A stretch of DNA of 64,000 nucleotides from Desulfatiglandales bacterium (GCA_963665715.2 CAXXPR010000002.1:372437-436436), one strand, 5' to 3'. Counted from the stretch's first letter, positions 32,560 to 59,039 are shown. Numbers and translations are program-made. The notes: generated by a model not told the origin, from the letters alone.

Positions 32560-32583
32560 AACATTACCTTTCATTTTTTTAAA

Positions 32584-32625: not shown

Positions 32626-32643
32626 GTATCTACAGGGGGAGGG

Positions 32644-33808: not shown

Positions 33809-33823
33809 TCAAGATATATGCCA
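33809..33823 (-). promoter_or_regulatory. Possible sigma54 promoter of the TauE operon
   Basis: Minus strand TGGCAT-ATATC-TTGA (one deviation at -12). Confidence 0.5.
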
Positions 33824-34108: not shown

Positions 34109-34123
34109 AGGCATCCTTTTTGC
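34109..34123 (+). promoter_or_regulatory. Sigma54 promoter of the antiporter gene
   Basis: AGGCAT-CCTTT-TTGC, GG-N10-GC, 60 nt before the ATG. Confidence 0.65.
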
Positions 34124-34182
34124 TCTGTATTGTAATTCAATAACTGCGTTATGATTCACACACGGATAAAAGGAGACAGTCT

Positions 34183-35217: not shown

Positions 35218-35242
35218 CCGGATGATAAAACGCGGCAGGAAA

Positions 35243-35446
35243 ATGGAAGCTCCAAAGGTTAAGGCTGTTATGAAAAGATATTCAGGGGGCGTTACCTCAA
35301 AAATAACGGTAAAGCCCTCTGATAAACTTACTGATGCAGTAAAAAGAATGCTTTTTTACAATGCCTCCAGTCTCACGGTTGAAGAGGAAGGCTGCCCCGT
35401 GGGAGTGCTTAAGCTTAAGGATGCATTAAAGGAGCTGGGGCTGTGA
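35243..35446 (+). CDS. Small single-CBS-domain protein
   Basis: V.AVM, TVKPSD.L.DAV..M, L.V.E...PVGVL...DAL; start uncertain (35222 or 35243). Confidence 0.7.
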   Translation: MEAPKVKAVMKRYSGGVTSKITVKPSDKLTDAVKRMLFYNASSLTVEEEGCPVGVLKLKDALKELGL

Positions 35447-36856
35447 ATCCTCCCTGCCTTTTTCTCTATAGTCTTCCGCTTCAAGACCAACCTGCTTCAT
35501 AAGCCTGTGCATGTACTGACGCTGTATTCCTGCTGTTTCGGCAGCCTGGCTGATATTTCCTCTGGTGTCCTTTAAACGTGCCTCTATATACTGCCGGAAA
35601 AACATCAGCATGAATTCATCCCTTGCTTCTCTAAATGGCTTTTTAAGTATTTCCTCATCAAGCACAGAAAGATCATTTGCGTGATCCTCATTTTTCATCT
35701 GCAGGTCAGCCATGTCCAGAGTGTCTGATCTGCAGAATATGACAGCTCTTTCCATCATGTTTTCCAGCTCGCGTATGTTGCCGCAAAAATCGTTGGTGCA
35801 CAGCTTTGCAGAAGCTCTTCCCGAAATCCCCTTTATGTTTTTCTGGTAGAGCAGAGAATATTTTTTAAGGAAATGATGGGCCAGCATGGGTATGTCTTCG
35901 CGGCGTTCCCTCAGTGCAGGTGTTTCAAGTCTTACCACATTAAGCCTGTAAAAAAGGTCTTCCCTGAATGTTCCCTTCTGAATATCCTCCTCAAGATTGT
36001 GATTTGTGGCAGCAATAAAGCGGATATCAGCCTTTTGAGTATGTGTGCTCCCAACAGGCTTGTATTCTCCTTCCTGTATCAGCCTTAACAGTTTTGTCTG
36101 CATCAGAGGATTAAGGTCGCCTATCTCATCCAGAAAAAGCGTTCCCCCGTCAGCCATGGTGACAAGACCTTTTTTATCCTTCCATGCACCTGTGAAGGCT
36201 CCCTTTACATGGCCGAAGAGTTCACTTTCAATAACGTTTTCTGTTATTGCAGTACAGTTGACCGTTACATAGGGGCCTGACTTTCTAGTGCTGAGCTGAT
36301 GCAGCGCACGTGCTACCAGTTCCTTTCCCGTACCGCTTTCTCCTGTCACAAGCACGGTTGCAGTGGTAGGCGCGACCTGGGTTATGTCATCTATGAGTTT
36401 ATTGATTATCCCTGAAGAACCGATAATTGAAGGTATCCCGTGTTTTTTACCGAGTTCTTTTCTAAGGGCAATATTCTCTGAAACAATGTTTTTCCATTTA
36501 ATAACCTTCTCTACTGTAAGTACAATCCGCTCTCTCTGAAAGGGCTTTGTTATATAGTCAAAGGCTCCTTCTCTTATTGCTTCAACCGCAGTATCTATGG
36601 TGGCATATGCTGTAATCATAATTACGGAAATATCCGGTCTTACGGCCTTCATTTTTTTTAAAAGATCAAGCCCGCTCATGCCCGGCATTTTCATGTCCAG
36701 TATTACAAGGTCAAACTTGTTTTTTTCAAAGAGTACCAGTGCCTTTTCAGGATTATTTTCTGTAGTGACACTGTTTCCTGTATCTTCTTCTATTATGCGC
36801 GATAACAGGAGGAGCATGTCCTTTTCATCGTCAACAATAAGTACGCTCCCTTTCAT
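35426..36856 (-). CDS. Sigma54-dependent response regulator (NtrC family: REC-AAA+-Fis HTH)
   Basis: GESGTGKE, ESELFGH.KGAFTGA, LFLDEIG, FREDLFYRL, GNIRELEN, GNISQAA. Confidence 0.97.
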   Translation of the reverse strand: MKGSVLIVDDEKDMLLLLSRIIEEDTGNSVTTENNPEKALVLFEKNKFDLVILDMKMPGMSGLDLLKKMKAVRPDISVIMITAYATIDTAVEAIREGAFDYITKPFQRERIVLTVEKVIKWKNIVSENIALRKELGKKHGIPSIIGSSGIINKLIDDITQVAPTTATVLVTGESGTGKELVARALHQLSTRKSGPYVTVNCTAITENVIESELFGHVKGAFTGAWKDKKGLVTMADGGTLFLDEIGDLNPLMQTKLLRLIQEGEYKPVGSTHTQKADIRFIAATNHNLEEDIQKGTFREDLFYRLNVVRLETPALRERREDIPMLAHHFLKKYSLLYQKNIKGISGRASAKLCTNDFCGNIRELENMMERAVIFCRSDTLDMADLQMKNEDHANDLSVLDEEILKKPFREARDEFMLMFFRQYIEARLKDTRGNISQAAETAGIQRQYMHRLMKQVGLEAEDYREKGREDSQPQLL

Positions 36857-38983: not shown

Positions 38984-39354
38984 TTTATGTGTTACCCTTA
39001 AAAATAATAATTATACGGACTCTTTCCATGGTCAAACAATCCGCAGATATCTGAAAGAAAATATAATCGCAAAGCCCGTGCCATATAATTGAAATGCTTT
39101 AATGGCGTAAAGTGGTGTATTTACATGGAATTTGATGATAGTGGGAAAGGGGACGCTGCTGGAAATGTTTAACCATTGTAAAGGCTTTTTACAATGTGGA
39201 AAACATGGGGCAGGTATATCCACAAGTTAGTTATCTTTACAGTCTGAAAAGAATATTTACATGACCTGTTGTCTACACATGAAATAATGATCCTCCCCGG
39301 CAGTTAAAACCCCTGTAAACCTGTCATACAGCGTGCTGTTACTTTTGCAGGTGC

Positions 39355-44702: not shown

Positions 44703-45344
44703 ATGAATAAAATCATTTCATACCTCCCTTCTTTTTTGATTTTCTTTGGAGCTATCTGCGCTGCTATTGGTGGGCTTTGGACTACCCTTCGAGACACTAA
44801 TGATAAAAAAGAGTTTGAACAGAAACTTAATTCTAAAAATGAAAAAATAATTGAACTAAATGATGAAATCAAAAAATATACAGTTGGTGGAGATAACTAT
44901 CCTTTTATACAAGAATATATTGAAAAAGATAAGTGTCATTTTTCAATTTTTAATAATTCACCTAATATGTTACCTCTTTATGATGTCAATGTTTTACTTA
45001 TAAATCATGATTTAAAGAAAAAAATTGACGATGATAAAAGCATACCTCTAGTGAATAAAATGTATTTGTTAGAAAGGGAAGCGTTTAAAAGAATTTATGT
45101 TGGGTATTTGCCAGGAATTAGTGGCTTAGCCCATATTGATACTGTTGCGCTTCCTCCAAAAGAAAAAGAAATAAGATATGAAATACATATGACGGCAAGA
45201 AATACTTCTGTAGTACAAGATGTAATTATTTATTACGACAATGAATACAAACGTTACCATACAAAATCAAAACTTATAAAAGATGGCATTGAATTGTTTA
45301 ATACAATAAAGCCTAAACAAACAATAAACCCGACCAGGCGATAA
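44703..45344 (+). CDS. Hypothetical membrane-anchored protein (gene cassette 1)
   Basis: AT-rich ORF, N-terminal TM helix then coiled segment; ends inside an attC-like site. Confidence 0.75.
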   Translation: MNKIISYLPSFLIFFGAICAAIGGLWTTLRDTNDKKEFEQKLNSKNEKIIELNDEIKKYTVGGDNYPFIQEYIEKDKCHFSIFNNSPNMLPLYDVNVLLINHDLKKKIDDDKSIPLVNKMYLLEREAFKRIYVGYLPGISGLAHIDTVALPPKEKEIRYEIHMTARNTSVVQDVIIYYDNEYKRYHTKSKLIKDGIELFNTIKPKQTINPTRR

Positions 45345-45377
45345 AACGCCGCCTGGCCGTTTATCATGTCGTTAGTT
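45312..45377 (+). other. Integron attC-like recombination site
   Basis: R'' cctaaac, L'' ataaac, stem ccaggcg/cgcctgg, L' gtttat, R' GTTAGTT with attC-like spacing. Confidence 0.75.
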
Positions 45378-45384
45378 GCAGACT

Positions 45385-46092
45385 ATGAATAAAAATATAA
45401 TTTACCAAATAATAATTTTATTCTTTCTAACTGGATGCACATCAAGGCTCACAGAATATCCGGTCCTTGATGATTACTCAGTACTGGAACCGTCTGTTGT
45501 GATTGCCGTTCCTCAGAGAGTATGGGAACTTGAACCATTAAAGTTATCTGAAAATTGTTTAAGTGGTGAATATATATGTATTGATATTGACCCACCACCT
45601 CTTGGGTTTGAATATAACATCATAAAACTGATCTATGGTCCATCTTTACCAAAAACAGTAGAAGTAGCAACAACAAGTCATATAGGCATAGAACTTTACA
45701 ATACAAATAAGAAAACAAAGAAATACCCAGTCCTTATGGTTATAGGTTCAAAAGATGATAATTACATTTTGCCCAGAAATCATGTCGGCCCCATAGTAAA
45801 GCTGGTTGACGGAAATTATGTTGTGCCTATAGATCCTTTTTATGGAGAAAATACTCTATGGTGGTTTCCTTGTTATATAACTCAAGAAATCAAGCCTATT
45901 CAATTTGGTGAGTCTATAGAGTCTTTTAGCATTCCATTGGAAGAAGCTTCTGATGAAGAATTAAAATCAAAATATGCGAAAATTATAGGTGATAAAGTTG
46001 TTCCAACCCATGGAATATATTTAAAGGACATAAAAGCTTATCTTGAGAAGAATGCACCTAAAATAGAAGATTTTGAATGTGATAGAGATTAA
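45385..46092 (+). CDS. Hypothetical lipoprotein (gene cassette 2)
   Basis: MNKNIIYQIIILFFLTG-C lipobox; bracketed by GTTAGTT (45371) and its exact complement AACTAAC (46097). Confidence 0.8.
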   Translation: MNKNIIYQIIILFFLTGCTSRLTEYPVLDDYSVLEPSVVIAVPQRVWELEPLKLSENCLSGEYICIDIDPPPLGFEYNIIKLIYGPSLPKTVEVATTSHIGIELYNTNKKTKKYPVLMVIGSKDDNYILPRNHVGPIVKLVDGNYVVPIDPFYGENTLWWFPCYITQEIKPIQFGESIESFSIPLEEASDEELKSKYAKIIGDKVVPTHGIYLKDIKAYLEKNAPKIEDFECDRD

Positions 46093-46096
46093 AGAC

Positions 46097-46130
46097 AACT
46101 AACAATTTAATAAACGCGGATTTGGCGTAA
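46097..46130 (+). other. Truncated attC (left half only)
   Basis: AACTAAC-aattta-ATAAAC-gcgga, then no L'/R' half; aaaaggggtca follows at 46135. Confidence 0.6.
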
Positions 46131-46271
46131 ATATAAAAGGGGTCATCCATTAAAGGGTTAGTCAAGAGAAAAAACACCTCTCCAATAAAAACTATTCCCT
46201 ATTTTTTGAATGGCGTTTTACTTCCGCACACCACCGATGTAAGTTCATTCCTACTTTGCGCCCGAGAATGA

Positions 46272-47318
46272 AAAAGGGGTCAAGTCTGCTTTTGACTCTT
46301 GCGCACTAATTTAACAGGCGAAATCTATTATGACAAGACCACTGAGAATTCAGTATCCAGATGCATGGTATCACATAATGAATCGAGGCAGACGTGGGGA
46401 TACTATATTCAAAAGCAAAGATGATTTATCAACCTTTATTGAACTTCTTAAAGAATTAAGTGAAGTGTTTAATGTAAGGGTTGCCGCCTATTGTCTCATG
46501 TCAAACCACTATCATCTGCTGGTGCAAACTCCGGATGCCAATATATCAAGAGCGATGAGACATTTAAACGGTGTTTATACCCAGCGATATAATAAGGTCC
46601 ATGGTTATGACGGCCCGCTTTTTAGGGGCAGGTATAAATCCATACTCGTTGAACTGGACAGCTATGTACTGGAACTTGTCAGGTACATACATAAAAACCC
46701 ATTAAAAGCAGGCATTGTTAATGATATAGAGAAATATCAATGGAGCACACATAAGGCATATTTATCAAATGCAAAAAAATGGGAATGGCTGAATAAAGAT
46801 TATATTTTAAAATTATTTTCCAGTTCAAAACCCGAAAGCCTCCGCCTGTACAAACATTTTGTACTCAACGAAATTCCGGGTGATATAAACAATATATTCA
46901 CCCGAAAAAATCTTCCTGCTGTCATAGGCAGTAAGACTTTTATAGACAGGGTAAAAGAAAAGTTTTTTAACAGTAATGATTTTGAGGAAATCCCTGAAAT
47001 AAAAAGCCTTGCACCTGATATTAACAGGATAATAAAAACTGTCTGCAGGAATTATGGAATCAATGAAAAAGAATTGTATATTACGAAAAGAGGCTATTTC
47101 AATGAACCTCGTAATGTCGCTATTTACCTTATAAGATACCTGCGAAACGATACACTGAAAAATGTTGGTGAATATTTCGGGATCGATAAATACAGCACTG
47201 TAAGCAGCATTATTGAAAGAGTTAAATATAAGATGAATGCAGATAAGACATTTAATAAAAGAGTATTGTTGATAAAGGGTGAGAGTGATAAGAGTCAAAG
47301 GCAGACTTGACCCCTTTT
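46272..47318 (+). mobile_element. HUH/Y1 nuclease element bounded by 29 bp inverted repeats (STIR-like)
   Basis: Left aaaaggggtcaagtctgcttttgactctt (46272-46300); right aagagtcaaaggcagacttgacccctttt (47290-47318); one mismatch; each has an internal gtcaa/ttgac hairpin. Confidence 0.85.
46330..47310 (+). CDS. Y1 HUH transposase (TnpA-REP/RAYT-like) with C-terminal DnaA_C-like HTH
   Basis: RPLRI.YP.AWYH..NRG, AYCLMSNHYHLL (HUH), GPLFRGRYKS, RYIH.NP (catalytic Tyr), YQWS; C-terminal RNVAIYL...TL..VG..FG...YSTVS. Confidence 0.93.
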   Translation: MTRPLRIQYPDAWYHIMNRGRRGDTIFKSKDDLSTFIELLKELSEVFNVRVAAYCLMSNHYHLLVQTPDANISRAMRHLNGVYTQRYNKVHGYDGPLFRGRYKSILVELDSYVLELVRYIHKNPLKAGIVNDIEKYQWSTHKAYLSNAKKWEWLNKDYILKLFSSSKPESLRLYKHFVLNEIPGDINNIFTRKNLPAVIGSKTFIDRVKEKFFNSNDFEEIPEIKSLAPDINRIIKTVCRNYGINEKELYITKRGYFNEPRNVAIYLIRYLRNDTLKNVGEYFGIDKYSTVSSIIERVKYKMNADKTFNKRVLLIKGESDKSQRQT

Positions 47319-47495
47319 AAAAGCGTTATCAATAAAATTTTAACACCCCCCCCTCCCGTTCATTAGATATATCGCATTAAATTAGTTGACTCTAATTATT
47401 ACTTATTATATTGCTAATACAGTAATTTTTAAAAATGAAAAAGTGGCTTGTGATATAAAACAGCTGCATATGGATATTTTCAGGTATACATTATA

Positions 47496-48434
47496 ATGGA
47501 AAAAAATCGATCTGTTGCCTCACTCTCTTCAAAAGTTGCCGGCCATCTTGTTAACCGTCTTCCCGAACAGATCGGAAGCGGTGGTATTTTCATCGACACC
47601 TTTGCCTCGGGCCTGCGGCTGCTGTACTGCAACCAGCAGTTCAAAGTAAAGGTTAGCCTTTCCGGTGAAACAACGGATTGGTGGGCCGGGATCAGCTTCA
47701 GCTTAAAAGGCCATTCCATAGTACACGCCTCAACGCTTCACGGCGATTTTGCCGGTGAAACCGGAAAAAGCAGGCTCTTTTTCTTTCCAGGGACCACGGT
47801 CCTGTCAGAGGATTTCAGTCCAGGCCACCGGGTTAAAATCAATATTATGTTTGACGCAAAGGTATTATTTGATTGCGCAAGGGATGATGAAGAGGCCTTT
47901 CTTCCCTTATTACAGGGATTCAAAGACCAGGCTCCCTATGTTGATCACGACATAATCCTGCCCCGGATGCACCAGGCTTTGAATCAAATCCTCGTCTGCC
48001 CCTACACCGGAAAAACCCGGGACTTGTTCCTTGAAAGCAAGGTTATGGAACTAATAACCTATAAACTGGAACAGATCCGGACCAGGACCCGTCCTTCTTC
48101 GCGACAGCATGGTATTCCCCCCTATGACATCGAACGGATACGCCATGCTGCCAGGTGCCTGCTCCAAAATCCGGCTGACCCTCCGGACATAACAACCCTT
48201 GCCGCAGCCGCAGGAATGAGCCGAAGCAAGTTTTACAAATGCTTCAAACAGGTTTTCGGACATTCCCCCCTGGATCACCTGCGCAACCATCGCCTCCAGC
48301 TGGCCCAAAATTTATTAACCGGGGGAAAACACAACGTCACCGAGACAGCCTTTGCCGTGGGCTATAACAATTTGAGCCATTTTACTAAAATTTTTACCGC
48401 CGAATTCGGAGTTCCTCCTCATAAAATGTCCTGA
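47496..48434 (+). CDS. AraC-family regulator (PchR/YbtA-like)
   Basis: LFLESKVMEL, LA...GMS.SK....FKQVFG, NVTETAFAVGY.NLSHF...F...FG..P. Confidence 0.93.
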   Translation: MEKNRSVASLSSKVAGHLVNRLPEQIGSGGIFIDTFASGLRLLYCNQQFKVKVSLSGETTDWWAGISFSLKGHSIVHASTLHGDFAGETGKSRLFFFPGTTVLSEDFSPGHRVKINIMFDAKVLFDCARDDEEAFLPLLQGFKDQAPYVDHDIILPRMHQALNQILVCPYTGKTRDLFLESKVMELITYKLEQIRTRTRPSSRQHGIPPYDIERIRHAARCLLQNPADPPDITTLAAAAGMSRSKFYKCFKQVFGHSPLDHLRNHRLQLAQNLLTGGKHNVTETAFAVGYNNLSHFTKIFTAEFGVPPHKMS

Positions 48435-48465
48435 TCCATCCCGCCCTGACTGATATCAGACTTAT

Positions 48466-48498
48466 ACAAATACGCTAATTTTTTGGACAAATACGTTA
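48466..48498 (+). promoter_or_regulatory. Probable AraC-type tandem binding site
   Basis: acaaatacgcta (48466) and acaaatacgtta (48487): direct repeats with 21 bp period upstream of the receptor gene. Confidence 0.6.
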
Positions 48499-48599
48499 GC
48501 GCATTTTTCATAATTTGACTATACAAACTAAAGTAGACAGCTTTAATAAATTTAGACACCTAACCATAAAAGGACACAAATGAATTGAAAGGATTGATA

Positions 48600-50591
48600 A
48601 TGAAAAAAATAATAGTTTTATGCTTCATAACATTGTTTATACTTTTTCAAAACATATACGCCGAAGACAACTCATTGGAATCGGATAATGAATTGAAACT
48701 GGAAGGGCTAACTGTAACGGCAAATAAAACGGAGGAAAATGTACAGGAAGTACCTATCTCTATAACTGTATTTAATGAGATTGAAATAGAAGACAGTAAA
48801 ATAGAATCAGTTCAGGATGTTGCTTCGTACACCCCCAATTTCGCTTTAATAAATAAAGCAGGAGGGGTTTTTACGCCTACAATACGAGGTATTTCCAATT
48901 CCCTGCCTAACGGCACTCTTACTTCACAGTCATCAAGTATAATTATTGACGGTATCCCGGTATCAGTTGCAAAAGGATTTGATGTAACTCTGCTGGATAT
49001 AGAAAGGATTGAAGTATTAAAAGGCCCCCAGGGAACACTATATGGAAAAGAGGCAGAAGCCGGAGTTATCAATATTATCACAAAAAAACCCGATAACGAA
49101 ATAAGAGGAAAAATAGGAATTGAACTTGGAGAAGATAATAAAAGACAATATATTTTTAGTGCAAGCGGCCCTGTTGCAGAAGATAAGTTATATATAGGAT
49201 TATCGGCAAAACATTATGAAAAAGACGGACTTATAAAAAATACGCTTTTTGGTGGATACACCGATGACAGGGAACATAACTACGGGAGACTCCACTTAAG
49301 ATATACCCCTACCGATAACCTTGAGATATCTTTAATATCATCTTTAATTAAATATGATGATGGAAATATTAATTATGTTATGCCCTATGTTCCGAGAGAT
49401 AATGGTGTAAGTACAAATGAGCAAGGTTATGATAAAACAGTTACAACAACACATGTCTTAAAAGTATCATATGATATAAATAACTACCTTTTAGAATCTA
49501 TTACAACCTATCGAAATGTAAATACGGATGCTTTACAAGACTATACTGTTTACCCCAATTTTATTTATGACAGGGATCATGATAAATACTCACAAGAGTT
49601 CAGGCTGAGTAATGATAGCGATATTTTTAAATGGGTAGCAGGAATTTATGCAGATAAAAGGGATGTTGATGATTTGTCACATTGGGTAACCGGATTTCCC
49701 CCTGTTTTATCAACAACAAAGGGTGATTCATTAGGCGTTTTTATCCATACTGACTATGCTATCAATGATAAACTCTCTTTTATTTCGGGAGTCAGGTACG
49801 ATAAAGACAATAAGGAATATGAAGAATCCACTACAAAACTGGATTTATCCGATGATGAGATATCTCCAAAAGTTTCTTTAAAATATCAGCATGATAAAAA
49901 TAATATGTATTATGCAACCATTTCAAAAGGGTATCGTGCAGGAGGTTTTCATGCCAGTGCACTAAGTGGTTATTCAAAACAATATGACAAAGAGACCCTA
50001 TGGAATTATGAAGCAGGGGCAAAAAACCGCTTTTTTAACAGGAGACTTATAGTAAACAGTTCCATCTTTTATATGGATATAGACGATATGCAGGTAAGAA
50101 TTAATCCTATTCCAGGCTCGTATAGTTCTTATGTAAATAATGCAGCAAAAGCGACTTCAAAAGGTTTTGAAATAGGATTAAACGGAAAACTAAGCGACAC
50201 GATAGATCTTTTTGCTTCTTATGGATATGCAGATATTACCTTTGATGAGTATAAGGATGCAAATGGTGATTATAGCGGTAATAATAATACATATGCTCCA
50301 GCATATAATTATAATATAGGTGTCCAATACAGGAGTGAACAAGGGTATTTTGCAAGAGTTGACGTAAACGGTTATGGAAGAACATATTTTAATGCCACCA
50401 ATACCAGCAGCAGAGATCCTTATAGACTTGTAAATATGAAAATAGGATATGAAGCTGATAATTATGATATTTATCTGTACGGGAAAAATATCTTTGATAA
50501 AGAATATGATTCCATCGACATGATGAATGCCAATGGAGTTATATATTCCGAATCAAGAGAGATCGGCGTACAACTGGCGTACAGGTTTTAG
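48600..50591 (+). CDS. TonB-dependent outer-membrane receptor (siderophore/metallophore type)
   Basis: Signal peptide, TVTANK, IERIEVLKGPQGTLYG....GVINIIT plug motif, NIFDKEY, terminal YRF. Confidence 0.95.
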   Translation: MKKIIVLCFITLFILFQNIYAEDNSLESDNELKLEGLTVTANKTEENVQEVPISITVFNEIEIEDSKIESVQDVASYTPNFALINKAGGVFTPTIRGISNSLPNGTLTSQSSSIIIDGIPVSVAKGFDVTLLDIERIEVLKGPQGTLYGKEAEAGVINIITKKPDNEIRGKIGIELGEDNKRQYIFSASGPVAEDKLYIGLSAKHYEKDGLIKNTLFGGYTDDREHNYGRLHLRYTPTDNLEISLISSLIKYDDGNINYVMPYVPRDNGVSTNEQGYDKTVTTTHVLKVSYDINNYLLESITTYRNVNTDALQDYTVYPNFIYDRDHDKYSQEFRLSNDSDIFKWVAGIYADKRDVDDLSHWVTGFPPVLSTTKGDSLGVFIHTDYAINDKLSFISGVRYDKDNKEYEESTTKLDLSDDEISPKVSLKYQHDKNNMYYATISKGYRAGGFHASALSGYSKQYDKETLWNYEAGAKNRFFNRRLIVNSSIFYMDIDDMQVRINPIPGSYSSYVNNAAKATSKGFEIGLNGKLSDTIDLFASYGYADITFDEYKDANGDYSGNNNTYAPAYNYNIGVQYRSEQGYFARVDVNGYGRTYFNATNTSSRDPYRLVNMKIGYEADNYDIYLYGKNIFDKEYDSIDMMNANGVIYSESREIGVQLAYRF

Positions 50592-50605
50592 AATAATGGG
50601 GAAAT

Positions 50606-50743
50606 GGGGTCGGGCCAAGGTAACCTATTGCAATTAAATTAAAAACATTGGTGAGCCCCCTTGTTTTGGGGGCTATATAGACTTTTTTATGTCAAAAAAG
50701 AACGATATAGAAAAATAATCAAAAGGTTAGCCTGGCCCGACCC
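50606..50743. repeat. GGGGTC-ended inverted-repeat element (non-coding, MITE-like)
   Basis: gggtcgggccaaggtaacct vs aggttagcctggcccgaccc (18/20 complementary); internal hairpin agccccc/gggggct. Confidence 0.75.
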
Positions 50744-50967
50744 TGTTTTACTTTTCTCAATTTTCACTTTGGCGATATGGTTGATATAAAACGACCTCCT
50801 GAACTCTCGCGGGGCATTTCACAACTATTCACCTCTACACTCTCGTCTGTGGAAAACAGATCAAACCGTTTGACTATGTGATATTGTAGACAGAAGGGCT
50901 TAAAACGGTACCGCTCCAGGTAGTGAAATCCGAAAAGAATGCCCCCTTTTTACGTTTGTCTAAAACA

Positions 50968-51006
50968 TTGACAGGTGTACCTAGTTGGCGTACGATATGA
51001 CGTACG
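50968..51006 (+). promoter_or_regulatory. Sigma70 promoter and autoregulatory operator of the TA operon
   Basis: TTGACA-17 nt-TACGAT with three GTAC-centred repeats overlapping it. Confidence 0.75.
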
Positions 51007-51026
51007 TTTAAGCTGGAGGAAATAAA

Positions 51027-51269
51027 ATGTCTACAGTAACAGCAACTGAAGCAAGAAAAAGACTCTATACCCTGGTCGATGAAGTAGCTGAGTCCCATGA
51101 TCCAATTAAAATTGTGGGTAAAAGAAACTCAGCAGTCCTATTGTCCGAAGAAGACTGGCGAGCCATACAGGAAACACTATATTTAACATCAATACCGAAA
51201 ATGAGAGAATCTATTCACAAGGGTTTAAATACGCCCATCGAGGAATGCGAAGAGGAGCTTGACTGGTGA
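51027..51269 (+). CDS. yefM: Phd/YefM-family antitoxin
   Basis: TATEAR..LY.L.DEV..SH.PI.I.GKR..AVL.SEEDW.AIQETLYL. Confidence 0.95.
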   Translation: MSTVTATEARKRLYTLVDEVAESHDPIKIVGKRNSAVLLSEEDWRAIQETLYLTSIPKMRESIHKGLNTPIEECEEELDW

Positions 51270-51529
51270 CCTGGCGTTTGGTCTACACAAAACAAGCAAA
51301 AAAAGATGCAAAAAAGCTTTCCCGTTCGGGCTTAAAGCCTCAAGCAGAAAAACTTCTCTCTATTTTACAGGAAGACCCATATCGAATACCTCCGCCATAT
51401 GAAAGACTAGTTGGAGATCTTGCAGGTGCATGTTCCCGAAGGATTAATATTCAACATAGGATTGTGTATCAAATTCTTGATGATATAAAAACCGTTAAAG
51501 TAATTCGTATGTGGACACATTATGAATAA
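51266..51529 (+). CDS. yoeB: Txe/YoeB-family toxin
   Basis: P...PPPYE.L.GDL.GA.SRRINIQHR.VY.......VKV.RMWTHYE; 4 nt overlap with the antitoxin. Confidence 0.95.
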   Translation: MTWRLVYTKQAKKDAKKLSRSGLKPQAEKLLSILQEDPYRIPPPYERLVGDLAGACSRRINIQHRIVYQILDDIKTVKVIRMWTHYE

Positions 51530-51681
51530 AAATACTGGAGAACATCATAATTAAGCGGGACCGGCTGGTTTTCCTGCCGATTGAAATCCAGCAATATAAA
51601 TAGTCTTAGTACTTTAACTGCCATCTATACATTAACCCGACAGCCCCCTTGTTCAGCAGGTCACGGAATAATAAATGCTTT

Positions 51682-51759
51682 TGTCTGTGTCAGTCTGCGA
51701 GTGTCTGCGGTTAAAAAAAAAGCTTTTAAAGCATGATTAACCGCAGACTAACCCAGACA
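51682..51759. repeat. Inverted repeat of ~10-nt units (gtctgcg-like)
   Basis: tgtctgtgtcagtctgcgagtgtctgcggttaa ... ttaaccgcagactaacccagaca. Confidence 0.7.
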
Positions 51760-51762
51760 TTT

Positions 51763-51876
51763 ATGAAAAGCGGTCAAACCTGCCTTTGACTCTTGTTCAT
51801 CAATTTAATGAGCTAACCGGGGGCTGTCCTCGACATGGTATAAACCAGGCCATAACTTGACCCCTTTTTTCATCTC
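51763..51876. mobile_element. Non-autonomous/deleted derivative of the Y1 element
   Basis: atgaaaagcggtcaaacctgcctttgactcttg..aatttaa resembles the left end at 46268-46314; acttgaccccttttttcatctc is an inverted end ~100 bp away. Confidence 0.7.
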
Positions 51877-51986
51877 AGGTATACAGAGCCTTTTCCCGCA
51901 GCCGTAAAAATCATTTAGCTATAGAGTTGCGGGGCGTACAGCGTTCCGGGGGTTACCCGGAATTTAACCATGATAAGGATGTTTTT

Positions 51987-53960
51987 ATGTTGTATTGTCG
52001 TAAGCGTTATATCTGTTTTTTGATGTTTGTTTTACTGATTTGCACTGCAAGTGCTTCAGCAGCCGGTTTCCCTTTGCCGGTCAGTTTTGACAATGTGGTG
52101 TCGGTAAAAGAAAAACATCACGATTACGGCATGCTCAAGGGGCTTAAAAAACAATATTTTGGTGAGTATTGGGAAGAGAAATATTCCTTTTCCATTAAAA
52201 TGGCCAATGAAGAGCGCTTTACCCTCATGGCCGGCAGTATCCTCCGGTTTTTGGATAACCCGTCTTATACCTTTGAAAAGTACGGCTATCTTGAATTTGA
52301 GTATGAAGGCGAAGAGTATCTCATGCAGCTTCAGGCCTATGCAAAAACCGCCACAATTAAACTTGTTAAAAGCACGGGTTTTACGCCTTTTCTTTCTCTT
52401 AAAATGGACAAATGGCCCATGAAAGAAAAACTGGCAGCAAAGGCGGGTGATGTGCCATTGGTTCTGGTGGCGCCGCATTCCAAAGAGCTTGAAGTTACGC
52501 GGCTGCAATACAAAGCCTATGAAGAAAAATTGTTTCGGGCGGGTAAAGACACCCTGGATGCGAAGGGAAAGTTCTGGGATATCCGGTACGGCCTGAAAAA
52601 ATATACCAAACACAACCTGCTCCGCTACCGTGCTGTGCAGGATTATCGAACCATTCTTAAAAAAGAGGGCGCCCAAATCATCATGGACGGGGATGCCGGG
52701 TTTATCTTTGAACTCGATTTTGAGGGGAAGCATTTTGTCGGTGATTTTGAGGCCTATGATAACAGCATTGCATTGCAGGTTATCGAAGAAGAGGCCTTTT
52801 CCCAATCCCTGGTACTCTCTCCGGACAAACTTAAGTCGGAACTCGATGCCGGCGGTAAAGTAACTCTGGAAGGGGTCTATTTTGATACTGATAAGGCAAC
52901 TTTAAAAAAAGAGTCAGGCAAAGCGATTCTTTCTTCGGCATCCTTGTTAAAACAATACAGTGATCTTGTCATCGAGGTTCAGGGGCACACCGACAGCCAG
53001 GGTGATGACAGCCATAATATGGATCTTTCTTCCCGGCGTGCAAAATCCGTTGTCAATGCCCTTGTGGCAGAAGGGATTAATGAAACACGCCTCAGGGCCA
53101 AAGGGTATGGTGAAACAAGGCCTGTTGCGGATAATAGTACTGAAAAGGGGCGTGCCCGTAACCGCCGGGTGGAACTGCACCGGATCAGCGGCGGTACCGA
53201 GAGGATGATGATCAATATCGATTTTATCAAACCCCTGCCTGGTGCTGTAACTGAATCAGAACGCCGTTACAGGGACGGCTTTCTCATGGTTCATCACATG
53301 CCGCCTTACAGCAGTAAAAAAAGAACAGAAAAAATTACCGCACCCTCATACGATGTATACGATTATATCATTGAGCGAAATGGAAAGCGGGATAACAGTT
53401 TCAGCCCCACTGAGATTCTTGCGAACTACCGAAATATTCTTCCCGTGTCAGGCGCTAAACTGATTGGTGAAGATTCAAACAAGCTCTATTTCACATTTGC
53501 AGATCGCGGCGACAAACGTCCTCTCTATGGTGTGATTACCGCCTATGAAGGCCGGTACAAAGTGAGTGTTTATACACTCACTGCAAAAGAGGATGCGCCG
53601 CCTGCAGCAGATAAAATGGTACCCGAAAGCAGTGGGTGCAGTGACGCCATAGTAGGACAGTGGCAGGCAGACTACCAGGGCAGCAAACCCTATAATACTA
53701 AAAAGTCATATGCCTTTGTCACCAACGGTGTTATTGAAGCAGCTTCAGATCACATCACCATAGCAGCAGATGGTTCTGCACGGATGGAAGGGGCAAAGGA
53801 CGGTTATGATCTTTCCTGGAAAATTGACAATGGGGCTGTCCTGCTTTTGCACAAAGGGGAGACTGTAAGACAGATAACCTGTGTTAATGACTCAACCTTA
53901 TCTGTTTCCATGTATATTCTGGGAGAAGAACCCACTGTAGTGATCTATAAAAAGCAGTAA
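51987..53960 (+). CDS. Exported OmpA/MotB-type peptidoglycan-binding domain protein
   Basis: Signal peptide; central YFDTDKA.L, GHTDSQG....N..LS.RRA..V, GYGE..PVA.N....GRA.NRRVE. Confidence 0.9.
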   Translation: MLYCRKRYICFLMFVLLICTASASAAGFPLPVSFDNVVSVKEKHHDYGMLKGLKKQYFGEYWEEKYSFSIKMANEERFTLMAGSILRFLDNPSYTFEKYGYLEFEYEGEEYLMQLQAYAKTATIKLVKSTGFTPFLSLKMDKWPMKEKLAAKAGDVPLVLVAPHSKELEVTRLQYKAYEEKLFRAGKDTLDAKGKFWDIRYGLKKYTKHNLLRYRAVQDYRTILKKEGAQIIMDGDAGFIFELDFEGKHFVGDFEAYDNSIALQVIEEEAFSQSLVLSPDKLKSELDAGGKVTLEGVYFDTDKATLKKESGKAILSSASLLKQYSDLVIEVQGHTDSQGDDSHNMDLSSRRAKSVVNALVAEGINETRLRAKGYGETRPVADNSTEKGRARNRRVELHRISGGTERMMINIDFIKPLPGAVTESERRYRDGFLMVHHMPPYSSKKRTEKITAPSYDVYDYIIERNGKRDNSFSPTEILANYRNILPVSGAKLIGEDSNKLYFTFADRGDKRPLYGVITAYEGRYKVSVYTLTAKEDAPPAADKMVPESSGCSDAIVGQWQADYQGSKPYNTKKSYAFVTNGVIEAASDHITIAADGSARMEGAKDGYDLSWKIDNGAVLLLHKGETVRQITCVNDSTLSVSMYILGEEPTVVIYKKQ

Positions 53961-54119
53961 TACTAAAGGAAGGCTTTTCCAAATGATGGAATGCTGAATT
54001 GTCTTTCCTGGCGGACCAAATTAACTATCCGTTTTTTCGTGAAAAATATTATAAATACAGCTGTTGTTCATCCTTAGGCTGTTCTTTTCAGCCCATGGTA
54101 TTCCTGATATGGTGAAAAG

Positions 54120-54253
54120 GACGATAGCTGTTTTCTCTTGATATTAATAAAAATTATACTTATTAATAAAAGTCTGTTCAGTCTCACACTCAAAGCATAA
54201 AGATCCTGAAACACCGCAGGGTCTTTTTATATAAATTTTCAAAGTTATTTTTT
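54120..54253. repeat. ~134 bp direct repeat, copy 2
   Basis: Same orientation as, and near-identical to, 44391-44524. Confidence 0.92.
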
Positions 54254-54398
54254 GAGTCATTATTAAGTAATAATATAGATGGTTTTCAATGAGATGCTTG
54301 AACCGCTGGAGAAGATACTTTCCTTTTCGGTTCCTGGAGCGATGCGGTTGCAGCATCTTCGTCCTGCCAGATCACCAATTAAAAAAGGAGGCATTAAA

Positions 54399-54968
54399 AT
54401 GAAGATCGCACAGGATTTGATTGAAGGTCTCGTATCAATAATAAAGCTTGGGCCAAAACTAAATAACCAGCAGAGAGCCGAAATCAGAAAAATAGTAGGA
54501 GAACTTGGAGATGAGTTACAACGGGCATTAAAGATGTCTATAATGTATCTGGAAAAAGCTCCGAGGATATCTGATGATCAGGGATATTCTGACTATTTAT
54601 CCGGTGCTACCGGAAAACTCCTGAATGCTTTCAATGAATTTGAAATATGTTCAGGCATCTATGGGTTACATGATAAATTCAATCAGGCCTTTGATCCAGC
54701 GAAATATTCAGTCAATATAGGCAATATACAAAAGGTCCACGAATTGATTGACAGTTTAAGCAATGGAGAGCAGATGGTTATTGACGGGATGGATAAATTA
54801 ACCGAAGAGCTTAGAAATATGTCGTGGGATTTTGATTCTGCAACCGGCGAGGATAAAGAAGCCATAAGAACCCAGATAAACACTTATATAAAACTCAGCA
54901 TTAACAGTATTGAATCAGATAGAAAAAGTATAAAAAACACAGTCCGGGAAGTCATAAAAGTAATGTGA
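54399..54968 (+). CDS. Hypothetical all-helical protein
   Basis: AGGAGG RBS before ATG 54399; no recognisable motif. Confidence 0.65.
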   Translation: MKIAQDLIEGLVSIIKLGPKLNNQQRAEIRKIVGELGDELQRALKMSIMYLEKAPRISDDQGYSDYLSGATGKLLNAFNEFEICSGIYGLHDKFNQAFDPAKYSVNIGNIQKVHELIDSLSNGEQMVIDGMDKLTEELRNMSWDFDSATGEDKEAIRTQINTYIKLSINSIESDRKSIKNTVREVIKVM

Positions 54969-55048
54969 TCCTGAAAACATTGTTTGCCGAAAAGTCTGGT
55001 AAGATATCGGCTTTGCGTAAAACCGACGGCCTGGAGGAGAGTTATCTA

Positions 55049-55726
55049 ATGATTTCGCCTGATGAAATTAGAGAAAAATTTGGTGACGATTTTTTCGTTG
55101 ATGATCACACTTTCAAGCTGGGGATAGATCATCGTTTCACAAAACATTTTTCCGAAAGATTTCAAAATCGGAAAGTGCTTGAAACATGCACCGGTGCAGG
55201 CTTTACTACTATTGCTTTAGCTCGTGCTGCATCTCACGTTGTAACCGTGGATATAAATCCTTCTCACCAGATGCAGGCAAAAGAAAATATCTTCAGGGCG
55301 GGTTTAACCGACCGGGTAACATTTTTATCAGGAGATGTTTTAGACGAAAAGATACTTGGTGAACTTGATACAGTTGATGCTGCGTTTCTTGATCCAGACT
55401 GGGCAGATACTGACCATGATCATGAATATTGCTTTATTAATTCAAATACACTGCCTCCTGCAGATATGTTGTTTGAACGTATTTATCAAATTACCAAAAA
55501 TATTGCTTTGGTTTTACCTCCATATATAACCACAAAAGAATTTGAACAGCTCCCGGTACATGAGTGTGAAAGTTTATACCTTGGAGGAGGCCATGAGCTG
55601 TTCTGTCTTTATTTTGGTGAACTTGTTTCAAGTATAGGCGAAAGTGAATTTCACATAAATGGCATAGAAAATAAGATGTCCGTTAATATCATATCCGCCG
55701 GAGGTAATACCTGTGAAAATGTTTAA
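55049..55726 (+). CDS. Class I SAM-dependent methyltransferase, TGS1/RsmD-like
   Basis: VLETCTGAGFTTIALA, VVTVDI, F..GD, DAAFLDPDW, NIALVLP, CLYFGEL; GGAGGA RBS. Confidence 0.8.
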   Translation: MISPDEIREKFGDDFFVDDHTFKLGIDHRFTKHFSERFQNRKVLETCTGAGFTTIALARAASHVVTVDINPSHQMQAKENIFRAGLTDRVTFLSGDVLDEKILGELDTVDAAFLDPDWADTDHDHEYCFINSNTLPPADMLFERIYQITKNIALVLPPYITTKEFEQLPVHECESLYLGGGHELFCLYFGELVSSIGESEFHINGIENKMSVNIISAGGNTCENV

Positions 55727-56051
55727 AGACAAACCATATCGGAATATTATTGAATTTATCGATGCTGCGGCAGGTTCGGATGAATTGATGAGCTGGCTCA
55801 GGAATTTAGAAACTTTACCTGATAATCTTCGGAGTGATCATCTTGCCAGGATGAAAACAAAAATGACATCAAACAAAGAACCTGAAAAAATTATTGATAT
55901 TGTAGAATCGATTAATAAACCGAAGGTGTTATCTGCCATAAACCTTGTCATAAAAGATGTATATGATTCAGGTATGAAGGCAGATAAATATTTAAAAAGA
56001 AACAGTAACAAAAATTTTAATATTCTTATAAGTCTTATGACAGGCTGTTAG
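55713..56051 (+). CDS. Hypothetical protein
   Basis: GGAGGT RBS; overlaps the methyltransferase stop; no motif. Confidence 0.55.
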   Translation: MKMFKDKPYRNIIEFIDAAAGSDELMSWLRNLETLPDNLRSDHLARMKTKMTSNKEPEKIIDIVESINKPKVLSAINLVIKDVYDSGMKADKYLKRNSNKNFNILISLMTGC

Positions 56052-57831
56052 CGGTAGAATTATAGACAATGATTCGGTTTCTGCCTTCTTCTTTTGCTTT
56101 GTAAAGAGCATCATCAGCATTTTTCATTACTCTATCGATCGGATCTTCAAGTGATTCTATTTCCGCTATCCCGATACTGACAGTTACTGTCAGTTCTCCT
56201 GCAGGGGATTCAATATTCTCTCTGCTGATTCCTGATCTTATCCGTTCTAGCACTATTGCAGCATCACCCGGATCTGTTTCCGGAAACAGTACTGCAAACT
56301 CTTCACCGCCCCATCGGCAGCATGTATCTGTTGCCCTGATACCTTCATTGAGTACACGGGCAAATACTTTGAGAACTTCATCACCAATATCGTGACCGTG
56401 GGTATCATTTACCTGCTTGAAGTGATCCAGGTCCATCAGCGCAACACATGGAGGTCTTCTATTGTGTCTTGATGCAGTTTTTATCTCTTTATAAAATTCA
56501 TCATGAAATGCTCTTCTGTTAAAAAGACCTGTAAGAGTATCTGTTCTTGCTGCTGATGCAAGCGCAGCATTATCCTCCGTGAGCATCCTGTTGAATTTTT
56601 TAGTCATTACCTGGTGATATACAAAGGATATGAATGTAGATAAAAGCAGTATCTCCAGTGGGAACAGCAATGCTGTTTTCTGACTGAAAAAAGCCATCAG
56701 TCCAAGTCCTGCAAGTAATGCTGCTATACCGGCCAGAATGGGTATGCCTATCAGGTGCAGATGGGTCAGATCCTTTTTAAGCCAGGTAAACAGCCCCGGA
56801 AAGAGAGCTATACATACAAGAATAATATTCCAGATTTTTTTGTCCGGTTTTAATGCAAGTCCCTTATTTATGGTTTCATGTGCAATTGCCAGAACATAGG
56901 TCCCGGACATGGAGCCTCTGGGTGTGTTTACCCTGTCGGACAGGTAGGCAGTACTTCCTATAAATACAGTCTTGCCTTGAAAAAAACCTTCATCATCAAC
57001 ATCAGTTATTCCAAGGGCTGTCTGTGCAACCTCGAAAAATGGCAGGGCCAGGATAGAATTTGCATTTTCAGGAAAATACACATGCAGAGTGCCCATTGTG
57101 CCTACAGGAAGCTGAAGTTTCCCGGCTGTTAAAACTCCATGGTCCGGATTATAACTGTACCCTGTTTTATTATAGTCATCTTCGGCAATGCGCAGTGTAA
57201 GAGACGGAAGAAAATAATCATTGACCCTGTATATCAGGGGCAGCCGCCGTAAAATACCGTCAGGGTCAGATGCTGCTGTGACAACGCCAATTCCTGCACC
57301 ATCTTCTCCTCTTCCTACAATTCCGGATCGGGGCAGAATAACAGACTTCATTTCAATATAGGGCAATTCTGTTTGAGGCTGAAGTGAAAGATATTTGAGC
57401 CGTTCAATATCTTCACGGTCGGTCGTTACCTCGCCAACCGGTGAACTGGCTGCAAAAAAAACGATTTTATTTTTTAATACAGACCTGTAAAAGTCTTCAT
57501 CCTGTTCCCGCTGATCCGAAAAAATAATATCAAAGACAACGGCCTTTGCCCCTTTTTCACTCAGATAATCAAGGAGCCTGGCATAAATCCCGCGGTTATA
57601 GGGCCATGTTCCTATGTGCGGTTCCAGCTGCCTCAGGCTTTCATCATCAATGTCCAGAACAACAGAATCTGTAAAATAGTATTCATCAGCAGCCATCTGC
57701 TGAATGCGGTCACGGACACGGAAGTCAAGAGCCAGATGCAGCGATGTGAGGGATATCAGCCATGCCAGGATAAAAGACACAGGAAGTATCCATGATCTTA
57801 AAATTAATATTTTAACAGGACTTTTAATCAC
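56035..57831 (-). CDS. CHASE2-domain diguanylate cyclase
   Basis: DIDDESL...G.WPY.R, FDIIFS, DPDG.LRR CHASE2; three TM helices; D.LTGLFNRR, DLDHFK.VND..GH..GD, RATD I-site, GGEEF. Confidence 0.95.
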   Translation of the reverse strand: MIKSPVKILILRSWILPVSFILAWLISLTSLHLALDFRVRDRIQQMAADEYYFTDSVVLDIDDESLRQLEPHIGTWPYNRGIYARLLDYLSEKGAKAVVFDIIFSDQREQDEDFYRSVLKNKIVFFAASSPVGEVTTDREDIERLKYLSLQPQTELPYIEMKSVILPRSGIVGRGEDGAGIGVVTAASDPDGILRRLPLIYRVNDYFLPSLTLRIAEDDYNKTGYSYNPDHGVLTAGKLQLPVGTMGTLHVYFPENANSILALPFFEVAQTALGITDVDDEGFFQGKTVFIGSTAYLSDRVNTPRGSMSGTYVLAIAHETINKGLALKPDKKIWNIILVCIALFPGLFTWLKKDLTHLHLIGIPILAGIAALLAGLGLMAFFSQKTALLFPLEILLLSTFISFVYHQVMTKKFNRMLTEDNAALASAARTDTLTGLFNRRAFHDEFYKEIKTASRHNRRPPCVALMDLDHFKQVNDTHGHDIGDEVLKVFARVLNEGIRATDTCCRWGGEEFAVLFPETDPGDAAIVLERIRSGISRENIESPAGELTVTVSIGIAEIESLEDPIDRVMKNADDALYKAKEEGRNRIIVYNSTANSLS

Positions 57832-59017
57832 GTGACTCCACTGCGAATTTATGAAGAGTCGAAAACGGACCCTGTTTTTTATCTTTATCTATACCTGCGA
57901 TCCTCCAGAAATATTCACCCGGTTCAAGTTTTACAGACACACCCCTTATATTTCCCTTAAGTCCTTTTATCTCTTTTTCGATTGTTGAAAAGTCTTCGTC
58001 TGATGAAATCTGAAAGATGTAACTTTCTGCTTCAGTTGAAGGCTCCCAGTGAAATTTTATCTTTTTTCTTGTTATGATGTCGTTTCCTGCAGGCGACTGT
58101 GCTTCCGGAGGCATCGGATGGGCATCAAGAACAAATATCTGCTCTGCATTTTCTCCTTCAAGTCCGTTTTTGTCTATACTCCTGACTCTGAGCATGTAGC
58201 TGTTATCCGGCAGCTGTGTTAAATCAGCTGTGCTGCCTTCGAATACGCTGTCGTAAACAAGATACTCATAGGCGTCTCCGGTCATAAGCTGAACCCTGAA
58301 TTTTTCTGCGTTTCCACTGTCTGTCCAGTTCAGCTGAAGTGGGAGCCGGTTTTCGACAGGTTTTACAGGCGTAACATCCGGAGCACCGGGAAGAGCAGTG
58401 GCTGCTTCAGGCGGTTTTCCAACTTCGGCTGAAGTTCCGTACCCTGCAGGAAGTTCAACCTCTTTGCCCGCTGCAGAGGCCATGACAGTTCCTTCAAGCA
58501 CCATTGATCTTGTTCGGCCTGTGTCTCCGTCAACTGATACAATAAAGCTTGTTCCTCTTACAGCAAGCTGCATTGCAGGTGTTAAAACCCTGTACCTGGC
58601 TTTAAACCCCTTTTGTTTTTTTACATGGGATTCAACGCTTCCTCTGTCAACACGAACTGCTGTTTCTGTTTCACCGGTTTCTTTCGATTTAAGCAGTTCC
58701 TCCATAACAACAAGACTGTTTTCCGAAACAAGCAGTTTTGAGCTGTCTTCAAACTGAATGGTCAGACTGCTGGAGGGGCCGGTTTCTACCTTTTCACTTT
58801 TTGCAAGGAAATCACCCGTTTTGACAGGAGATTTTTCACCTGCTTTTATTTTTAGTGCCTCTCCCTGTATCCGGATTACTTTGGCCGCTGCCAATTCAGG
58901 ACTTTTAAGTCCGCTGCTGCAGGAAAAGAAAAAAACAATACCAGTAAGTATAAATCCTGCGATAAAAATTCCTGATTTAAATCTTTTTGATTTATTCCGG
59001 CTTTTTCTGCCTGACAT
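57824..59017 (-). CDS. FecR-domain lipoprotein with C-terminal Fn3-like domains
   Basis: Possible lipobox FFSC; ETG..S...I.F.D.S, TP....AVRGT.F.V, VLEG.V FecR motifs; Y..RVRSID..GLEG and YFWRI..ID Fn3 strands. Confidence 0.85.
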   Translation of the reverse strand: MSGRKSRNKSKRFKSGIFIAGFILTGIVFFFSCSSGLKSPELAAAKVIRIQGEALKIKAGEKSPVKTGDFLAKSEKVETGPSSSLTIQFEDSSKLLVSENSLVVMEELLKSKETGETETAVRVDRGSVESHVKKQKGFKARYRVLTPAMQLAVRGTSFIVSVDGDTGRTRSMVLEGTVMASAAGKEVELPAGYGTSAEVGKPPEAATALPGAPDVTPVKPVENRLPLQLNWTDSGNAEKFRVQLMTGDAYEYLVYDSVFEGSTADLTQLPDNSYMLRVRSIDKNGLEGENAEQIFVLDAHPMPPEAQSPAGNDIITRKKIKFHWEPSTEAESYIFQISSDEDFSTIEKEIKGLKGNIRGVSVKLEPGEYFWRIAGIDKDKKQGPFSTLHKFAVESRD

Positions 59018-59039
59018 AATAAACTCCTTTTAATTCTTA

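Follow-up and report, generated by a model that had tools for sequence, protein, structure and literature searches.

A 64,000-nucleotide stretch of a Desulfatiglandales bacterium genome (GCA_963665715.2 CAXXPR010000002.1:372437-436436; here called the window, with positions counted from its first letter) contains a gene for a Y1-type HUH nuclease with a helix-turn-helix (HTH) tail, set between inverted repeats and accompanied by further repeats in nearby spacers. Do this nuclease and its repeats gather and rearrange the genes around them, or do they move only themselves? The initial annotation, which flagged positions 46135-51876, favoured the first answer and suggested that the two act as a platform for single-stranded DNA gene capture or shuffling alongside integron cassettes. 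The analysis presented here leads with high confidence to the second: the window holds one intact TIRtron, gene-less derivatives of such elements and the scar of an insertion sequence (IS), and the repeats neither capture nor shuffle neighbouring genes.

TIRtrons and their TIRYT genes are described, in passages of Di Nocera, De Gregorio, Rocco 2013 (PMC3733652), as RAYT-like genes with terminal inverted repeats in place of REPs. According to the same passages, the motif GGGGWSAS is common to many TIRtron repeats, some of the repeats overlap the 3' end of the gene, and solo, dimeric or grouped repeats are present in some genomes. Passages of Quentin et al. 2018 (PMC6006769) equate TIRtrons with TnpA_REP subclass 2.1, of which group 2.1.2 has a Bac_DnaA_C-like tail.

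Results

Identification of a predicted TIRtron

The gene lies on the plus strand at 46330-47310 and encodes a protein of 326 amino acids. Pfam searches with this protein identified Y1_Tnp at residues 11-123 (E 2.1e-13) and Bac_DnaA_C at residues 231-298 (E 1.7e-12, 47.6 bits against a cut-off of 31.5). The catalytic residues, H60 and H62 in NHYHLL and Y119 in RYIHxNP, were invariant in nine aligned sequences, comprising the window protein and eight relatives. The top NCBIfam model was REP_Tyr_transpos, at 66.5 bits and under its cut-off of 80, and transpos_IS200 scored 20.9 against a cut-off of 55. The 326-residue sequence alone gave zero matches to the PDB at E up to 0.01, and structural matches were obtained with a profile of the nine-sequence alignment. 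The N-terminal part of the profile matched E. coli TnpArep (4er8, E 8.6e-5, residues 1-142) and ISDra2 TnpA (2xm3, E 2.5e-4; 2xma, E about 2.5e-4), and the C-terminal part matched structures of DnaA domain IV (8btg, E 5.8e-9; 1j1v, E 1.5e-6).

The two arms that frame the gene, 46272-46300 on the left (plus strand) and 47290-47318 on the right (minus strand), are 29 nt long and complementary at 28 of 29 positions (97%). The left terminal inverted repeat reaches out to 46265 with a conserved lead-in, ATGAAAAA, and its core ends 29 nt upstream of the start codon. The right repeat encodes the last six residues of the protein, KSQRQT, and the TGA stop codon at 47308-47310. A C-terminus of the KSQRQT type was repeated in five of the seven aligned HTH-bearing sequences, which argues that the overlap of gene and repeat is conserved. 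When many copies of the repeat were compared, conservation reached outward to about ATGAAAAAGGGG, which explains the complementarity found beyond the 29 nt. The 29-mer at up to three mismatches occurs three times in the 64-kb window, against 0.00 expected, and AAAGGGGTCA four times against 0.10 expected, all within the flagged stretch. The Pfam domains and the 29-nt arms therefore bear out the initial annotation of a Y1/HUH nuclease with an HTH tail, exactly framed by 29-bp inverted repeats of which the right one contains the stop codon.

Because the gene domains, the flanking repeats, the 3' overlap and the dispersed copies match the published description, the element of about 1.05 kb at 46265-47318 was placed in the TIRtron class, as a predicted RAYT-like HUH/Y1 nuclease with a DnaA domain-IV-type HTH between terminal inverted repeats of about 30 nt and of the GGGGWSAS type. 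By these sequence features it is an ordinary example of the known TIRtron/TIRYT class, equivalent to TnpA_REP subclass 2.1.2. The earlier remark that a Y1 subclass flanked by inverted repeats had been described bioinformatically only agrees with the TIRtron and TnpA_REP 2.1.2 passages cited above. In the parts of the literature covered by our search, including work from 2018 onward on RAYT, TnpAREP, TIR and HUH, no experimental study of the TIRYT class was found.

Mobility of the whole unit and its relatives

The source genome (7.63 Mb in two contigs, C1 and C2) was compared at the DNA level with 40 relatives, two of which, G005 and G002, contain homologues of the whole TIRtron unit. G005 carries two families. 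The first consists of 1047-bp copies that are 99.2% identical and lie in different flanks, plus a truncated third copy, and the second of 1040-bp copies, 98.4% identical and again in different flanks. The copies have sharp ends, TAAAGGGGTC...GACCCCTT, with no visible target duplication. Since near-identical copies of 1.04 kb sit in different flanks, the unit of gene and repeats moves as a whole and without cargo.

The TIRYT protein has 14 matches in the source genome itself. The window copy is the only close one, and the full-length matches that come next show 38-40% identity. At C2:5100137-5100645 lies a broken relative, with 67% and 61% amino acid identity and with stops. Eight of the 13 paralogous Y1 loci have flanking inverted repeats of their own (17-32 nt), and in seven of these eight GGGGAC, GGGACG or GGGTCA stands at or near the outer end; the eighth is represented by a 17-nt inner part only. 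The other five loci, three of them fragments, gave matches of 10 nt or less only. The window repeat is present in eight copies at up to seven mismatches, three of them in the window.

These data also bear on a different view of the element, as a domesticated, vertically kept RAYT-like system that maintains a small population of REP-like repeats for the host in the style of REPIN-RAYT, which we consider unlikely. Domestication would fit the presence of one intact copy and eight repeat copies in a 7.6-Mb genome, a repeat that varies by just 0-3 mismatches between genera against a DNA identity of 68-73% for the genes, the predominance of gene-less dimers in public genomes, and REP_Tyr_transpos as the best NCBIfam match, although that match stays below its cut-off. 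Against it, the two and three copies of the G005 families, at 98-99% identity in different flanks, display the behaviour of a transposon that moves as a whole unit. The locus is moreover non-syntenic in the closest complete congener, and the occurrence of the repeat in metagenome-assembled genomes labelled as other phyla (Verrucomicrobiota, Methylomirabilales, Dehalococcoidia) suggests horizontal spread.

Two further observations were made on repeat copies outside the window in the source genome. Those at C1:416965, C1:420909, C2:826676 and C2:1448040 are each followed by a shared unit of about 200 nt, with a GGATTCC..GGAATGACG hairpin and a terminator-like stem at its end, possibly a non-autonomous element of greater length that makes use of a single TIRtron repeat. 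The repeat at C2:2066917-2066941 stands exactly where an IS200/IS605-type tnpA frame (MENTQSLKHSVWDCKYH...) stops after about 33 codons.

Contents of repeat pairs in public genomes

With 0-3 mismatches, the 25-nt core of the repeat is shared by other genera, both within the family and in families close to it, and in a set with one genome per species the repeat was found in at least 129 stretches. Most of the metagenome-assembled genomes bearing it are labelled Desulfobacterales or Thermodesulfobacteriota, and single matches are labelled Verrucomicrobiota, Methylomirabilales, Dehalococcoidia and CSSED10-310. It often takes the form of a convergent pair, with the two repeats 12-22 nt apart (L033, L035, L036, L040) or 98 nt apart (L039).

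After six contig duplicates had been dropped, 72 distinct loci with 120 repeat copies were analysed, with a reach of about 6 kb between repeats. One repeat copy was present in 43 of the 72 loci, and adjacent repeats in the set formed 23 convergent, 17 same-orientation and 8 divergent pairs. The convergent pairs span 60-154 bp in 16 cases, and 299, 798, 872, 1036, 1044, 1657 and 2012 bp in the rest. Full Y1 genes are held by the 1036- and 1044-bp pairs, a broken Y1 gene by the 872-bp pair, an IS110-family transposase by the 1657-bp pair and a partial Y1 match by the 2012-bp pair. No recognisable non-transposase cargo gene was found in the 23 convergent pairs within this reach, the 798- and 2012-bp pairs not being resolved.

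The initial annotation had named the contents of repeat pairs as a check of its idea, and over these 72 public loci the pairs hold Y1 genes or an IS110 transposase or are gene-less dimers. It is therefore very improbable that the Y1 nuclease and the GGGGTC-ended repeats form a single-stranded DNA platform for capture or shuffling in which repeats serve as cassette-like junctions between modules. In favour of such a platform, the modules (cassettes, Y1, AraC-TonB receptor, YefM-YoeB and OmpA gene) differ in GC content, and a stretch of 5.6 kb with four cargo genes lies between two convergent repeats, the left one at 46272 and that at the right end of a mini-element at 51879. Three other genomes contain the YefM-YoeB module at 78-80% identity, and at loci L090 and L070 four same-orientation repeats are spaced between genes. 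One or other repeat family is indeed present in three spacers between modules, but the sharpest GC break in the stretch, between the AraC gene (49% GC) and the TonB receptor gene (33-35% GC), has no repeat. The junction repeats belong to two different families and an IS scar, the spacer 3' of YoeB contains in addition a hairpin of its own and a 107-nt repeat unrelated to them, and an intergenic position is expected for any tolerated small repeat.

Relatives of the window element and of its neighbours point the same way. The multi-copy units of G005 move without cargo, and the 40 relatives yielded no moved copy of either the AraC-TonB or the OmpA module, the only DNA match being one of 91 nt at 71% inside the TonB gene. 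Among the well-assembled congeners the closest, G010 (about 75% identical, in a coarse comparison), is syntenic over window positions 30030-38991 only, and the point where synteny is lost, near 38991, is separated from the nearest repeat by about 7 kb. In five congeners, positions 51880-64000 gave one 326-nt match only, located elsewhere on the G010 chromosome. A more specific version of the capture idea, in which the distant convergent repeats (46265 and 51879) are processed as one single-stranded DNA unit and TIRtrons occasionally mobilise host genes into cassette-rich regions, is likewise hard to credit. The enclosed genes would in that case be Y1, AraC, the TonB-dependent receptor and YefM-YoeB, and the L090 and L070 arrays would be the residue of such events, a suggestion to which we also give very little weight.

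Insertion of an IS1111-type element within the repeats

At 46135, where the initial annotation had placed another related end cutting off an attC, the match to the repeat is limited to 11-12 nt, TAAAAGGGGTCA. An 11-nt outer repeat stub, AAAAGGGGTCA (46135-46145, plus strand), which is identical to the repeat's outer part, is directly followed by 119 nt (46146-46264, minus strand) left over from the right end of an insertion sequence of IS1111 type (IS110 family). The remnant is 91-92% identical to C2:3219734-3219858 in the source genome, within a full copy of the IS, and the proposed TIRtron end at this position was accordingly withdrawn.

The full copy in the source genome (C2:3218238-3219858; L043 1238-2859) carries a 347-residue gene with the Pfam domains DEDD_Tnp_IS110 and Transposase_20. 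The right-end unit lies downstream of an IS110-family transposase gene in this copy and in L012. It was found in 17 loci of other genomes from many genera, several of them at contig ends, and its first 47 nt or so are most conserved. Comparison of two full copies located the left end, TGATAATCATATAAAGGG, about 110 nt before the transposase gene and the right end, ...CCCTTTAATGGATGACCCC, about 470 nt after it, and the full copies have subterminal inverted repeats of about 12 nt. Passages of PMC11208160 describe the IS1111 group as having a short left end and a long right end that holds the bridge RNA; the family is reported to be RNA-guided. The traits of the group (a DEDD recombinase, a long right end, subterminal repeats and a fixed site) were established on full copies.

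Junctions at other loci indicate where this IS inserts. The target halves around the core read AAGAGTCAAAGGCAGACT / TGA / CCCC. In L046 the left and right flanks of the IS rebuild a complete repeat, AAGCTAATAGGAGACT / TGA / CCCCTTT, and in L003 both repeats of one TIRtron are interrupted at the same TGA. Four junctions (L046, L003, L109, L114) show the left end of the IS directly next to a repeat's inner half. Footprints of the IS of 14-16 nt lie inside the right repeat of L003 and twice in L117. At the right-end junctions of 18 aligned loci GGGGTCA is exact in nine, has one mismatch in six and is more divergent in three, the full copy of the source genome being among these three. Where the right repeat is hit, the TGA of the target is the TIRYT stop codon. 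Judged by these junctions, the IS1111-type element inserts at one TGA inside the repeats in several genera. Because it does so elsewhere, the stub at 46135 is interpreted as the outer piece of a repeat split by the IS.

The right end of the IS holds AGGGGTCA, complementary to the target half and core, and ATGGATGAC, identical to its own terminus; these segments could belong to a guide RNA. No left end of the IS was found in the 64-kb window beyond a three-mismatch chance match at 34517. Rfam searches of the whole window at gathering scores, and of 45800-52200 at E up to 1, returned nothing relevant, with one tRNA elsewhere and one chance snoRNA match. Two other readings of these sequences were discarded. 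The full IS copies ruled out the unit at 46135 as a small RNA or a TIRtron end, and the conserved GATCTGCACCAGTCA segment was dropped as a gene C-terminus, as it lies within the non-coding right end of the IS.

In the metagenome-assembled genome of L109 (5990-7660) about 60 nt of the repeat dimer are duplicated on either side of the IS, the left flank stopping at the TGA of one repeat and the right flank beginning at the TGA of the other. In the parts of the literature searched, a TIRtron repeat was not found reported as the target of an IS1111-type element. The case is a new example of a mechanism that is already known.

Gene-less repeats near the TIRtron

The mini-element reported at 51763-51876 corresponds to a real repeat pair of the same family. 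It is decayed, and its bounds were set by repeat comparison at 51766-51879 (114 bp). Over its left 43 nt (51766-51808) it shares 81% identity with the left end of the TIRtron, including the leader just inside the repeat, and its right 25 nt (51855-51879), which comprise the outer part of the right repeat only, are 84% complementary to 46261-46285. In size it is similar to the L039 dimer with its 98-nt spacer. On the strength of these similarities, the MITE-like dimer is a decayed, gene-less derivative of the window's own TIRtron family, as would be expected from the earlier claim that related gene-less repeats lie near the Y1 gene.

The paired ends reported at 50606 and 50743 are also a true inverted pair, but they do not belong to the repeat family of the window TIRtron. 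The 147-bp pair at 50602-50748, delimited by inverted-repeat comparison and folding and assigned to a second TIRtron family, GGGGTCGGGCCARG, has arms (50602-50630 and 50720-50748) that are 83% complementary, and its single strand has a folding energy of -33.1 kcal/mol (z -6.2). Its sequence, GGGGTCGGGCCAAGG, differs from the window TIRtron repeat, and the motif of its family is GGGGTCGGRCCAAG. At least nine further copies of this second family were present in the source genome among the matches listed, most with conserved adjacent bases. Because GGGGTCGGRCCA repeats flank Y1 genes in G010 (L060) and G009 (L061), encoding proteins of 282 and 263 amino acids with Y1_Tnp only, and no close homologue of these genes was found in the source genome (best match 29% identical), the pair at 50602-50748 is taken to be an orphan dimer of a second TIRtron family. 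When one mismatch was allowed, GGGGTCGGGCCARG was in most genomes not more frequent than the reversed control (12 matches against 10 in G000), and the second-family matches used were the exact and GGGGTCGGACCAAG-type ones only, checked by alignment and context.

Three other features lie in the spacers. At 47364-47400 (minus strand) there is a candidate decayed inverted copy of the TIRtron leader, the region between left repeat and start codon; the resemblance is weak and was partly read by eye, with leader positions 46305-46327 being 74% complementary to 47364-47386. It stands 46 nt outside the right repeat and hints at an older second insertion there. A 107-nt repeat at 51541-51647, directly 3' of YefM-YoeB and unrelated to the GGGGTC repeats, has copies at 76-83% identity in G005 (two), G010 (at least four), G001 (three) and G003, and once in the source genome at C2:6294515. 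It may be the attC of a toxin-antitoxin cassette. Between this repeat and the mini-element, at 51682-51759, lies a separate inverted repeat of 18-22 nt, GTCTGCGGTTAA...TTAACCGCAGAC.

attC-like sites and neighbouring genes

A complete attC-like site, an imperfect palindrome on the plus strand at 45315-45377, closes the cassette before the open reading frame at 45376-46092. Over 52 nt it is 92% identical to C2:1693191-1693242, a sequence with an integron integrase gene about 1.1 kb away (TIGR02249 score 469 bits, cut-off 265). The first half of another site lies at 46096-46128 (plus strand), assigned by layout comparison only: AACnAAC, then AAT..AAAC, then a GC-rich arm follow in the same order as in 45315-45377. 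Its second half was not found in the window, and matches in the genome were unrelated or distant. The earlier statement that an attC is cut off here is plausible as far as the half-site layout goes, and the cut adjoins the repeat stub and the IS scar.

The source genome has two integron integrase genes above the TIGR02249 cut-off, at C2:1694397-1695341 and C2:4163378-4164319 (469 and 463 bits). The cassettes of the window, far from both, form an integrase-less attC cluster. The AraC-type regulator and the TonB-dependent receptor gene (47496-50591) differ by about 15 GC points despite their apparent functional pairing.

Discussion

The reading of the window as an ordinary TIRtron with gene-less derivatives has to be weighed against several observations that count against it. 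The element is present in a single copy, with one decayed relative and eight repeats in this genome, and current activity is not evident. No joints at repeat edges were found in the assembled contigs, which cannot reveal rare circles. Two runs of one sample contain the stretch as contigs, a third run contains low-depth pieces, and no RNA run is listed as containing it; the joints that were found in contigs lie elsewhere and have short sides of 21-37 nt at low stringency. The repeat motif GGGGTCAA agrees with GGGGWSAS, as given in the TIRtron passages, at seven of eight positions, the eighth being A and not S. The arrays at L090 and L070, in which four same-orientation repeats follow successive genes, look like module junctions; we read them as the REP-like habit of occupying 3' spacers and not as rearrangement. 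A full same-orientation repeat lies directly inside the IS right-end stub in the window, L024 and L018 (stubs of about 126, 55 and 95 nt), an arrangement that may reflect repeat-mediated deletions or re-insertion.

The folding of the repeat belongs with these points. The folding energy of a single repeat is -2.3 to -2.6 kcal/mol (z -0.25 to -0.5), a stability reached by 57-74 of 200 shuffles, and the hairpin of 5-6 bp inside the repeat, no more stable than in shuffles, is missing from the sister variant GGGGTCAAATCTCCTATTAGCTC of the repeat. The description of the repeats as hairpin-forming is thus weak for the single repeat; the 50.6-kb pair folds strongly. IS608-style recognition of hairpins may not apply. 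Because the small hairpin is no more stable than shuffles and is lost in the sister variant, the repeat may instead be recognised by its sequence on duplex DNA.

In the most likely mechanism, modelled on IS608 TnpA and E. coli TnpA_REP, the TIRYT enzyme would recognise the conserved repeat, with the HTH tail as a putative repeat-binding module. Tyr119 and a metal site formed by His60 and His62 would cut single-stranded DNA at the outer edge of the repeat, and the enzyme would move the unit of gene and repeats as well as, in trans, gene-less repeat pairs. We infer both the Y1-catalysed single-strand cleavage and the movement of dimers in trans from these related systems. The satellites are best explained as by-products of the window TIRtron family and of a second such family, occupying intergenic spacers as REP-like elements do. 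On this view an IS1111-type element inserted into a repeat at the fixed TGA and left the 11-nt stub behind. The IS survives as 119 nt of its right end, adjoining the truncated attC-like site; its remainder has been lost together with the inner half of the split repeat.

The window element resembles TIRtrons of subclass 2.1.2, as characterised in passages of PMC3733652 and PMC6006769, in its repeat-flanked RAYT-like gene, the 3' overlap, the Bac_DnaA_C-like tail and the dispersed solo or dimeric repeats. It differs from them in a repeat family that is unusually conserved across many Thermodesulfobacteriota and is targeted by an IS1111-type element, of which the same passages make no mention. 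With the REPtron of E. coli TnpA_REP (4er8) it shares a homologous nuclease domain, a gene flanked by inverted repeat copies and gene-less pairs, whereas it lacks GTAG-tagged palindromes, has eight repeats and not hundreds, bears an additional HTH and is related to whole units that are multi-copy in a congener. TnpA of the IS200/IS605 family (IS608, ISDra2) has the same HUH/Y1 fold and motifs, and the single-strand 'peel and paste' chemistry is presumed to be common to both. Those elements have subterminal hairpins and no terminal inverted repeats, unlike the window element, and their TnpA is about 130-150 amino acids long without an HTH. For the IS, the closest parallels in passages of PMC11208160 are IS4321/IS5075 at Tn21 ends, IS621 in REP sequences and the IS1111-attC group, which likewise occupy a fixed position in a repeated target and have DEDD and Transposase_20 domains; the present IS differs from them in that its target is a TIRtron repeat.

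The result removes a tempting reading of the locus as a second gene-capture system beside the integron cassettes. It also calls for caution in annotation, as GGGGTCA-ended fragments may be scars of the IS and not TIRtron ends. For the untested TIRtron enzymes, the family offers a substrate in the form of a repeat of about 30 nt conserved to a few mismatches, recently moved 1.04-kb copies and natural dimers. The specialisation of an IS1111-type element on one position of this repeat adds a clear-cut case from nature of parasitism between mobile elements.

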